Made by a program: the position numbers and the translations under genes. Below the pieces are notes generated by a model. It worked only from the letters and a program-made list of their open reading frames with translations, searched no databases and was not told the origin of the DNA. Positions 12,039-13,991 of a stretch of 54,449 nt of DNA are shown here, piece after piece. Within the stretch, counting starts at the first letter, position 1, and the number at the start of each line of letters is the position of its first letter. The stretch is taken from the NCBI GenBank assembly GCA_037139695.1, contig JBAXFX010000001.1, positions 1 to 54,449 on the forward strand, in the 5' to 3' direction. Origin of the DNA: Candidatus Moraniibacteriota bacterium (GTDB taxonomy: Bacteria > Patescibacteriota > Minisyncoccia > Moranbacterales > UBA1568).

Positions 12039-13991
12039 CTACTTCTTCAGTATCGCTAAAAACGCTTCGGATGGGATGGATACGCGACCAAGAGACTCCA
12101 TGCGTTTCTTTCCTTTCTTCTGTTTCTCAAGCAGTTTCTTCTTGCGAGAGAAGTCGCCACCATAGAGTTTGGCGGTCACGTCCTTGCGGAAGGCCGAAAT
12201 GGTCGAGCGCGCGATGACCTTGCCACCGATGGTCGCCTGGATCGCCACAGCGAAGTTCTGTCGAGGAATGGCGTCCTTGAGCTTGTCGGTCGTGCGTTTG
12301 CCCTCGTCGAACGCGCGCGCCTTGGGTATCATCCGTGAGAACGCCTCGATACGGTCGCCCGCGACCATGATGTCGAGCTTGACCACGTCGCTCTCGCGAT
12401 AACCGATCGGCTCGTAGTTCATGGAGGCATAGCCGGCCGTCGCGCTCTTCAGCTCGTCGTGAAAGTTCACGATCACGTCCATCATAGGCGCATGGAAAAC
12501 GAGGAGCACGCGCTCCGCATCGATATATTCGGTATTCTTATATTCCGCCCGGATCGATTGCGACAAATTCATCACGTTGCCCAGGTATTCGCTCGGCACG
12601 ACGATGGACAGCTCCACGTACGGCTCGAAAATTTTCTCGATACCTGCCGGGTCCGGCATATCCGACGGCGAATACATCGGTACCCGCGCATCGACTCCAC
12701 GAAGCTTGAGTTCATAGACGACCGAAGGCGTGGTGATCGTCGGCTCCATGCCGAACTCGCGCCGAAGCCTTTCCTGGATAATCTCCATATGCAGGAGTCC
12801 GAGGAACCCGCACCGGAATCCGCGACCGAGCGCCTGGTTCGATTCCGGTTCGAACACGAACGCGGCATCATTGAGCCGGAGCTTGTCGAGTCCGTCACGC
12901 ATGAGCCCGTACTCGTCGCCCTCCACCGGGTAGAAGCTCGCGTACACGACCGGTTTCATCTCGCGATATCCCGGTAGCGCCTCCACGGCGAGCTTCTCAC
13001 GATCGCGCGGTTTGAGCGTCACCGTATCGCCGACCCGGCAGTACGCCACCTCCTTGAGACCGGTCGCGATGTAACCGATGTCGCCTGCGGACAGCTCCTT
13101 ACCCGACACAAGCTGCGGATGGAAGGTCCCGACCTCGATGGCCAGGCTCTCCTGTCCGGTGCCGATCATGTGAAGCGCCGTATCACGCCCGACCGTCCCA
13201 TCCACGAGTCGGACATACGCCACAACACCTTTATAGGTATCATAGACGGAATCGAAGATAAGCGCGCGAAGCGGTTTTTCGGGATCACCCGACGGCGCCG
13301 GAACGCGTTCGACGATCCGATCAAGGATCTCCCGTATGCCGATTCCCGTCTTGCCGGAGGCGAGCAGGATATCATCCTCGTCGCATCCGAGGATATGCAC
13401 GATCTCTTTTTTCGTCTTGTCCACCTGTGCATTCGGCAGGTCGATCTTGTTCACGACCGGGATGATCTCGAGTCCCTGCTCCACCGCAAGGTACAGGTTC
13501 GCCAACGTCTGTGCCTGCACGCCTTTGGTCGCGTCGACAAGCAACACCGCGCCCTCGACCGCCGCGAGCGAACGCGACACCTCGTAGTGGAAGTCCACGT
13601 GCCCAGGCGTATCGATCAGGTTCAGGATATAGTCCGTATCGGACTGGCTTTCCCGCATCCCCGGCTGTCCGCTGTCCGTCGTTTTCGTTCCCGAGGTTTG
13701 CTCCGCGTTGTGAATTGTAAGTTGCCCACTCGTCCCTGCGAGCGGGTCCGCGCACGAAGATGTCGCGGATAAGTTGTGAGTTGTAGGTTGCATGCGATAT
13801 CTCATCCGCACCGGCTGCAGTTTGATCGTGATGCCACGCTCGCGCTCCAGGTCCATCTGGTCGAGGAGCTGTTCCTTCATTTTGCGGTCCTCCACCGTGT
13901 GCGTGAATTCGATAAGCCGGTCGGCCAGGGTCGATTTCCCGTGGTCGATATGCGCGATGATGCAGAAATTGCGGATGAGTTTCAAATCCAT
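12039..13991 (-). CDS. lepA: Translation elongation factor 4 (LepA) carrying an in-frame insertion of about 45 aa in the G domain
   Basis: 'IRNFCIIAHIDHGKSTLADR', 'DTPGHVDF', 'NKIDL', 'FRCGFLGLLHMEIIQERL' and C-terminal 'YGGDFSRKKKLLEKQKKGKKRM'. 650 aa versus about 600 for typical LepA. Confidence 0.95.
   Translation of the reverse strand: MDLKLIRNFCIIAHIDHGKSTLADRLIEFTHTVEDRKMKEQLLDQMDLERERGITIKLQPVRMRYRMQPTTHNLSATSSCADPLAGTSGQLTIHNAEQTSGTKTTDSGQPGMRESQSDTDYILNLIDTPGHVDFHYEVSRSLAAVEGAVLLVDATKGVQAQTLANLYLAVEQGLEIIPVVNKIDLPNAQVDKTKKEIVHILGCDEDDILLASGKTGIGIREILDRIVERVPAPSGDPEKPLRALIFDSVYDTYKGVVAYVRLVDGTVGRDTALHMIGTGQESLAIEVGTFHPQLVSGKELSAGDIGYIATGLKEVAYCRVGDTVTLKPRDREKLAVEALPGYREMKPVVYASFYPVEGDEYGLMRDGLDKLRLNDAAFVFEPESNQALGRGFRCGFLGLLHMEIIQERLRREFGMEPTITTPSVVYELKLRGVDARVPMYSPSDMPDPAGIEKIFEPYVELSIVVPSEYLGNVMNLSQSIRAEYKNTEYIDAERVLLVFHAPMMDVIVNFHDELKSATAGYASMNYEPIGYRESDVVKLDIMVAGDRIEAFSRMIPKARAFDEGKRTTDKLKDAIPRQNFAVAIQATIGGKVIARSTISAFRKDVTAKLYGGDFSRKKKLLEKQKKGKKRMESLGRVSIPSEAFLAILKK
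13632..13796. repeat. In-frame insertion inside lepA: two 19-nt direct repeats flanking small hairpins
   Basis: 'gttgtgaattgtaagttgc' (13707..13725) and 'gttgtgagttgtaggttgc' (13773..13791) are 17/19 identical and 66 nt apart. Between them lie hairpins cccactcg/cgagcggg and tccgcg/cgcgga. The region encodes low-complexity 'QPTTHN...QLTIHN' between the 'GITIK' and 'DTPGH' motifs. Confidence 0.7.

Follow-up and report, generated by a model that had tools for sequence, protein, structure and literature searches.

Short tandemly repeated repetitive (STRR) elements of filamentous, heterocyst-forming cyanobacteria are built from tandem 7-bp units. Many dispersed arrays occur per genome, and in intergenic spacers, such as that between hupS and hupL, they often form hairpins; their function is unknown (PMC2670836). 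An STRR array has also been reported inside a structural gene, that of RNase P RNA (Vioque 1997). Rickettsia palindromic elements (RPEs) fuse in frame with unrelated, conserved host genes, and the extra peptide is tolerated by the host fold (PMC10969869). Borg tandem repeats are described as fast-evolving, as present both between genes and in open reading frames (ORFs), and as creating disordered, hydrophilic segments; the ORF copies are described as perfect amino-acid repeats under strong selection, enriched in extracellular and membrane proteins (PMC9879509). Here we describe an in-frame repeat array in lepA, the gene for the translational GTPase LepA (EF4), on a contig of Candidatus Moraniibacteriota (Moranbacteria) from the Candidate Phyla Radiation (CPR, Patescibacteria). 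The analysed stretch of 54,449 nt (54 kb, hereafter the window) is the sole part of this genome that was surveyed. We read the array, at a probability of roughly 0.7, as an STRR-like heptanucleotide array that was captured in frame, evolves by slippage or unequal exchange and contains a hairpin module nested in it; its translation would yield a disordered loop that the protein tolerates.

The lepA coding sequence was found intact on the minus strand (12039..13991, 650 aa), based on the ORF list, the Pfam domains of homologues and the solved EF4/LepA chains. The ORF is uninterrupted, with no stop codon inside the insert. The G motifs AHIDHGKST, DTPGH and NKID were found in the protein, which matched solved EF4/LepA chains with E values from 1e-206 to 1e-160. 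Its homologues carry the Pfam domains GTP_EFTU (PF00009), GTP_EFTU_D2 (PF03144), EFG_C (PF00679) and LepA_C (PF06421), and the best of them are named Candidatus Moranbacteria or Moraniibacteriota. Motifs, domains and solved-chain matches together identify the predicted product as the LepA/EF4 translational GTPase. An earlier reading made from the letters alone (the sequence-only reading) had called the gene essential. The gene is highly conserved, yet in E. coli it is reported as nonessential (PMC4324249).

The insert lies in the G domain, where it occupies the variable tip of the beta2-beta3 hairpin (13632..13796, minus strand). This segment is exactly 55 codons long (RMQPTT...SQSDTD), versus about six codons in other LepA, and lies between the conserved strands LQPVRMRY and YILNLIDTPGH. 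The low-complexity peptide that had been quoted for it is indeed encoded there, in frame. Between GITIK and DTPGH, the Moranbacteria LepA has 69 residues. This spacing is 20-21 residues in 75 of 79 LepA from diverse bacteria and 21 in the solved EF4 chain 5imq_B, and not about 10, the figure given for E. coli in the sequence-only reading. The net gain is therefore 49 aa. In the alignment with 5imq_B, query residues 1-68 correspond to chain residues 4-71 and query residues 118-649 to chain residues 73-602, with one chain residue between. When aligned with relatives, both the whole extra stretch (147 nt) and a nested one (45 nt) were multiples of 3.

At the DNA level, the insert is a degenerate CAACNNA heptanucleotide tandem array, with 3 + 3 clear units plus a degenerate tail, split by a nested 45-nt double-hairpin module. 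All of its parts are given here on the minus strand. Block A (13770..13790) reads CAACCTA CAACTCA CAACTTA and encodes QPTTHNL. It is followed by the module (13725..13769), which is GC-rich and non-periodic, encodes SATSSCADPLAGTSG and consists of two stem-loops (13747-13769 and 13725-13746). Block B (13662..13724) reads CAACTTA CAATTCA CAACGCG, encoding QLTIHNA, and continues into the tail units GAGCAAA CCTCGGG AACGAAA ACGACGG ACAGCGG ACAGCCG. The C-terminal part of the insert (13632..13676) encodes DSGQPGMRESQSDTD, which is conserved as protein within the clade, as seen in codon tables and peptide lists. Three such 7-nt units add up to 21 nt, and in every heptapeptide one 7-mer is thus read in each of its three frames. 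Protein selection would give a 21-nt period only; the 7-nt sub-period within the heptapeptide repeat therefore marks an origin at the DNA level.

Two 19-nt direct repeats, 17/19 identical and 66 nt apart, had been noticed in the insert (13773-13791 and 13707-13725). Both exist, the first in block A and the second in block B. With up to three mismatches, the 19-nt repeat had three matches in the window versus 0.01 expected, the third being on the opposite strand in the mraZ-rsmH spacer. The repeats had been taken as the flanks of an element. An alignment with three relatives (L086, L087 and L088; such labels denote fetched loci of relatives or other genomes) shows the 45-nt module as a clean insertion that falls between two heptamer units. 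Since it is cleanly nested, the "flanking" repeats are the array on each side of it. Their likeness is explained by the periodic self-similarity of a 7-nt array, and not by element ends or target-site duplications. The two small hairpins noted between the repeats were confirmed: positions 13722-13772 fold at -25.8 kcal/mol into two adjacent stem-loops (z = -3.7 against shuffles). Heptameric tandem repeats with nested elements have a counterpart in Nostoc, where Elhai et al. in 2008 reportedly described small dispersed repeats lying within them. Hairpin modules in heptamer arrays are the shared feature, seen here in the 45-nt lepA module, in a 36-nt module of L123 and in apex hairpins of L122 and L127. 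The difference is that no multi-copy family of nested modules was found in the CPR loci.

The clean insertion of the module also fits a different origin, in which a discrete miniature mobile element, similar to an RPE or a miniature inverted-repeat transposable element (MITE), transposed in frame and left the 19-nt repeats as its ends or target-site duplication. In-frame fusion of RPEs with host genes is a known precedent (PMC10969869). However, the arms of the lepA insert are direct and not inverted, and terminal inverted repeats are missing. As a whole, the insert folds no better than its shuffles (z = -0.96 and -0.64 in two computations). No further copy of the 45-nt module or of its two hairpins turned up, whether in the window or among ~2.5 Mb of fetched loci. 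Furthermore, the array units differ from site to site without a family consensus, and the flanking repeats are accounted for by array periodicity. The lepA copy thus lacks two defining features of RPEs and MITEs, a multi-copy consensus and palindromy, and we consider a discrete element quite improbable here. RPEs are a good functional analogy: in both cases, small repeat DNA lies in frame and leaves the host ORF intact. They differ in that RPEs are ~150 bp long and form families with a conserved consensus and peptide, while only the 7-nt periodicity is common to the sequences described here. In the lepA copy, only the inner 45 nt fold (z = -3.7). From the earlier proposal of in-frame colonisation by an RPE-like element, the presence of repeat DNA in frame in a conserved gene is supported, and the discrete palindromic mobile element is not.

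The insert was compared among close relatives. In 90 of 120 LepA homologues, sister lineages included, the tip has exactly 20 residues; it is longer in the other 30. The 17 closest homologues (76-92% identity) form one clade, in which every member has an insert. Their tips are 39-69 aa long, with very different sequences. The tree behind these groupings, a neighbour-joining tree of the homologues built without the tip, places the other 13 insert-bearing sequences at separate points, alone or in small groups, between sequences that lack the insert. An alignment with relatives had been suggested as a check on the insertion, and it showed that the insert varies in presence and length, the opposite of a conserved loop. 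Insert peptides show a 7-residue rhythm, such as KQITVNS EQKTGSG EQITENS EQIADNR... or LQPTTDN LQRTTGN. In the DNA, the L081 array has ~17 units of AACAGNN, that of L086 reads CAACTGA CAACTGA CAACTTA CAACGAA, and that of L088 reads CAACAGA (CAACCGA)x3 CAACGGA.

Selection on the protein offers another explanation, with a functional, lineage-specific loop, for example one that contacts the CPR ribosome or evades an inhibitor, and with incidental repeats. The 15 C-terminal residues DSGQPGMRESQSDTD are one argument for it. They are conserved in the clade and appear to be under protein-level constraint, because codon differences within the clade are mostly synonymous (5 synonymous and 2 non-synonymous in L081, 6 and 2 in L086, 3 and 4 in L082). 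The recurrence of inserts at three LepA loops across the CPR, and the over-representation of lepA among array hosts (both described below), also speak for a function. Against it stand the plain 20-aa tips of most relatives, including sister lineages, and the unrelated insert peptides of different lineages. An origin at the DNA level is indicated instead by the 7-nt sub-period and by arrays of the identical class in non-coding DNA, and the region is predicted to be disordered. We regard a functional loop kept by selection as unlikely.

The predicted disorder comes from an AlphaFold2 model of moderate quality (67 sequences, mean predicted local distance difference test [pLDDT] score of 64). Residues 71-117 had a pLDDT of ~30 (below 50) and no secondary structure, and were placed between strands 61-66 and 120-127. 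Judging from the topology of the Ras-like fold, the beta2-beta3 turn probably lies on the side opposite the nucleotide pocket. Disordered, hydrophilic segments made by nucleotide tandem repeats, both in intergenic DNA and in ORFs, are a likeness to the Borg repeats as these are described. The CPR arrays differ from that description in their 7-nt units, which are in frame only as triplets of units, in their imperfect heptapeptides and degenerate arrays, and in their location in a cytoplasmic translation factor.

Two comparisons bear on the history of the insert. The L082 and L085 loci are 97-98% identical over ~20 kb. Between their lepA genes there are 22 substitutions and a single indel, which lies in the array and measures 42 nt, corresponding to six units or 14 codons. 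This indel points to a recent change of array length in lepA. L083 and L084 carry the insert itself. A tract at 13600..13962 of the window is ~98% identical to positions 10016-10380 of L083/L084, with 343 of 350 nt identical over 13613-13962. Outside the tract, the rest of lepA is ~80% and the flanks are 73-78% identical, and gene content is different. P0001, the LepA protein of L083/L084, is 89% identical to the query overall and identical through the insert. On these sequence comparisons, the ~360-nt tract over the lepA 5' end and insert looks like a recent gene conversion between species-level lineages, and it shows an exchange of the insert-bearing 5' part of lepA between diverged lineages. 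Gene content also differs next to lepA. A low-GC island (34-50% GC; 14104-19682, minus strand) lies between lepA and murJ, with genes for a GmrSD-N/HNH nuclease, RhuM, a D12 adenine methyltransferase, a 430-aa protein of unknown function and an EcoRI-type methyltransferase. It is missing at that position in L082, L085 and L084, and is partly common to L081 (84-88% identity).

The segment could also be absent from the mature product, as an intein, intron or translational bypass element, or not be real at all, as an assembly artefact. An artefact is contradicted by the identical insert in the two other independent assemblies, L083 (ENA) and L084 (NCBI); with three assemblies in all, the insert is therefore not an assembly error. 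Excision is at odds with a segment that is in frame and free of stop codons, and whose extra 147 nt and 45 nt are both divisible by 3. The insert (49 aa) is much too short to be an intein or a group I or II intron, and it had no Rfam match. Bypassed coding gaps are known from T4 gene 60 and from the mitochondrial "byps", and GC-rich hairpins between matching CAACTTA units superficially recall them. However, the CAACTTA units on either side of the module are read in different frames, which leaves no matched codons for take-off and landing. Explanations of this kind are very improbable.

The heptamer class was found again in non-coding DNA of the window. With one mismatch allowed, GTTG(N3)GTTG(N3)GTTG had six matches versus 0.16 expected. 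All six were confined to lepA and two spacers, that between mraZ and rsmH and that after ftsI. This runs counter to a refuting case named in the sequence-only reading, a motif that occurs nowhere else in the genome. An unbiased lag-7 scan of the window detected two arrays, at 36450-36482 and 39795-39887, with 0.46 regions expected. The first (36450..36482, minus strand) is intergenic, just downstream of ftsI, and reads GTCAGCA GTCAACA ATCAACA GGGAGCA GGGAA in the sense direction. The second belongs to a 97-nt hairpin in the mraZ-rsmH spacer (39790..39886, minus strand; z = -6.5), which reaches from the stop codon of mraZ to the ATG of rsmH. Its arms are heptamer arrays, CAACTTA CGACTGA CGACTGA CAAC on the 5' side (39855-39879, minus strand) and GTTGTGG GTGGTGA GTTGTCG GTTGTGG GTTG on the 3' side (39798-39830, minus strand). 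The motif GTGAGTTGTNGGTTG does recur here on the opposite strand (39805-39819), as had been noticed. The match arises because both sites have the same heptamer unit type (CAAC/GTTG), and not because they hold two copies of one element.

The spacer hairpin and the coding inserts differ in strand preference. In the spacer, the sense strand folds at -45.8 kcal/mol versus -21.1 kcal/mol for the antisense strand, with seven G-U pairs. Being far more stable in the sense strand, the hairpin is as expected of a structure used in the transcript, which suggests an RNA-level role in transcript stability, processing or the control of rsmH translation. An Rfam search of the spacer gave no family match. In the lepA coding inserts, unlike the spacer, sense and antisense strands fold about equally well. 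The palindromy of these inserts therefore belongs to the DNA, and selection on RNA structure was rejected for them. Another gap in the window (8750-9242, 493 nt without a long ORF) begins with a purine-rich array of ~7-nt period and contains GC-rich stem-loops, such as ctccctttgcaaaagggag and tctccccctttcgggaagggggag. It had no Rfam match and may represent an RNA that is not annotated, or else the remains of a gene.

Period-7 arrays were counted in the fetched loci. In 1.06 Mb of CPR loci there were 51 such arrays, versus 12, 8 and 2 arrays with periods of 5, 6 and 8. The non-CPR LepA loci (1.34 Mb) had 22, versus 13, 16 and 4. These control loci came from a genome-contig scan with full-length LepA, whose patterns were too universal and brought in distant LepA. 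Period-7 arrays are thus specifically enriched in the surveyed CPR loci. Several lie in frame in other genes. L088 has arrays in miaA (19862-19946 and 20303-20380), one of which is a (GGGGTCA)n/(ACCCTNT)n hairpin, and in dnaE (21060-21099). In L099, an array (3546-3592) is located in frame, exactly between two Kae1-like subdomains of a HypF-like gene. Others sit just upstream of a start codon, which in L087 and L170 is that of lepA. Unit sequences vary by site (CAACNNA, AACAGNN, GGGGTCA, CGAATGA, AAATCCA and others), with no family consensus. A database search with array-encoded peptide gave a sole match, a 73-aa ORF on an array-filled, apparently non-coding, AT-rich contig of 1.3 kb, which says little either way. 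The 1.3-kb AT-rich contig L171, without convincing genes, has two long heptamer arrays at 350-620 and 835-950, of the types (GATGGTT/GGTTGAT/GATTGGC) and (AACAGAG/AACAGAT)n, as well as a ~59-nt tandem repeat. The unit type of its second array is the same as in the lepA arrays of L081 and L082.

Inserts at the LepA tip are not limited to Moranbacteria. The metagenome scan yielded 80 CPR-type lepA loci with 79 readable tips; when only the peptide of the insert was used, 600 stretches matched, none of which was confirmed by tblastn. In 19 of the 79 readable tips the length was 26-68 aa, with peptides unrelated between lineages. The DNA of these long tips mostly follows one architecture, in which an A/C-rich heptamer array comes first, in many cases with a small hairpin of high GC content behind it, and the complementary array last. 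Examples are (AAATCCA)n ... (TTTGGAA)n in L127, (AGAATTN)6 ... (ATTCAAA)4 in L094, (AAGTCAA)4 ... TTGAACTTT in L150 and (CGACCAA) ... (GTCGTCA)3 in L098. Fold z values were below -2 in 13 of 27 tips, versus 2 of 27 control segments that were taken from these genes, and the L087 tip folds as a hairpin with z = -5.2. GC-rich apex hairpins occur within the arrays of the L122 and L127 tips. The related tips of L123 (100-273) and L121 (1246-1383) differ by a 36-nt hairpin (about GTAAAGTTGCGTGGCAACCACGTTGCTTTACG), present in L123 and not in L121, which on sequence comparison would be a second example of a small hairpin module inserted in frame within a heptamer array. A family of nested mini-hairpins with TCC(C)GC...GC(G)GGA stems was not borne out, as the TCC start was not enriched (13/304).

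Some of these tips speak in favour of discrete elements. Clearly palindromic inserts occupy the identical LepA site in other CPR. The tips of L126 (178-342) and L120 (4034-4234) contain an element that is bounded by the terminal inverted repeats GTCATYCTGAG / CTCAGRATGAC and encodes the peptides HSES...SEESR...PQDDR and ...LRSTQDDK. In L126, a further CTCAGGATGAC lies within lepA, at 746.

In other CPR, in-frame arrays were also found elsewhere in LepA, at two more places: one is the VPAP...RALIFDS linker and the other is the loop that follows RVGDTxT. These arrays are located in L095 (8499-8536), L099 (10746-10798), L124 (10743-10785), L139 (2043-2090), L141 (3713-3753 and 4003-4047) and L146 (9915-9955), and encode peptides such as ISNFQFPVS and TTNYKLQTT. 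Overall, lepA held 20 of 44 array clusters while making up 15% of the surveyed DNA (binomial p = 1.4e-6), in a set of loci that were chosen via lepA and ranked partly on the insert-bearing fragment.

Taken as a class, the CPR arrays resemble STRR sequences in several respects. Tandem 7-nt units are present in lepA (3 + 3 plus tail, and up to ~17 in relatives), and one STRR unit, CAACAGT, resembles the CPR units CAACAGA and AACAGTG. Dispersed arrays are more frequent than expected by chance, judged from the 54-kb window (0.46 expected) and the CPR loci. Hairpins from inverted arrays were seen in the mraZ-rsmH spacer, in the L087 tip and in 13 of 27 tips, but not in the lepA insert. The CPR arrays differ from STRR sequences in lying in frame inside conserved protein genes and in recurring at one loop of one protein. 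The host of the lepA array described here is a Moranbacteria member of the CPR and not a heterocyst-forming cyanobacterium. Given the different phylum, no common descent is implied, and we call the arrays STRR-like and not members of the STRR group.

For a captured STRR-like array, we propose the following mechanism. Arrays would form and vary as DNA, through replication slippage or unequal recombination that proceeds 7 nt at a time, and small hairpins would occasionally nest in them. In ORFs, a frame filter would let only stop-free versions with a length that is a multiple of 3 survive. The LepA hairpin tip may tolerate arrays because the hydrophilic loop is disordered and probably points away from the nucleotide pocket. 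The insert peptide would be mostly a passenger, with only the 15 C-terminal residues looking constrained.

Several points weigh against an STRR-like array. It gives no reason for the 7-nt size of the unit and leaves the origin of the 45-nt module unexplained. The lepA array itself, with only 3 + 3 clear units and a degenerate sequence, falls under the threshold of the unbiased lag-7 scan; being short, degenerate and sub-threshold, it leans for its heptamer reading on homology with relatives. Translation of the segment is a prediction from the intact ORF. The apparent protein-level constraint on the C-terminal 15 residues suggests that this part of the loop may do something. Finally, the over-representation of lepA among array hosts is not obviously explained by simple tolerance. 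What surprises most in these findings is that unrelated repeats use one LepA loop again and again, and here the mechanism is also weakest. A more speculative extension, to which we give little weight, is that a DNA-level process of the CPR makes heptamer arrays and small hairpins that preferentially target, or are retained in, three lepA loops. LepA would then be hypervariable, near-perfect arrays (L088, L094, L099 and L150) could be phase-variable via slippage of one 7-nt unit, and the tip would be a landing pad shared by unrelated palindromic repeats across CPR phyla.

Two other features of the window were recorded. An intergenic region (31085-31546, 462 nt) contains a long inverted repeat, ctctaagtatctatctcaaatctca ... 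tgagatttgagatagatactaaga, with a second inverted pair, caaatccgaaaatttcg ... cgaaattttcggatttc, inside it; there was no Rfam match. The sole Rfam match of the window was a tRNA gene (46037-46109, plus strand) between divergent protein genes.

Descriptions of heptamer or other tandem repeats, or of LepA insertions, in CPR/Patescibacteria were not found in the literature searched, and the extent of that literature limits this absence. The results indicate that CPR genomes hold a class of repeat DNA with a period of 7 nt, of a kind until now associated with filamentous cyanobacteria. Its presence inside conserved housekeeping proteins represents a concrete and repeatedly used route from non-coding repeat DNA to disordered protein loops. 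The recurrent use of the LepA hairpin tip by unrelated repeats amounts to a natural experiment on the insertion tolerance of a translational GTPase. Because the inserts vary in length between near-identical genomes and recombine, they can mislead lepA-based phylogeny and strain typing.

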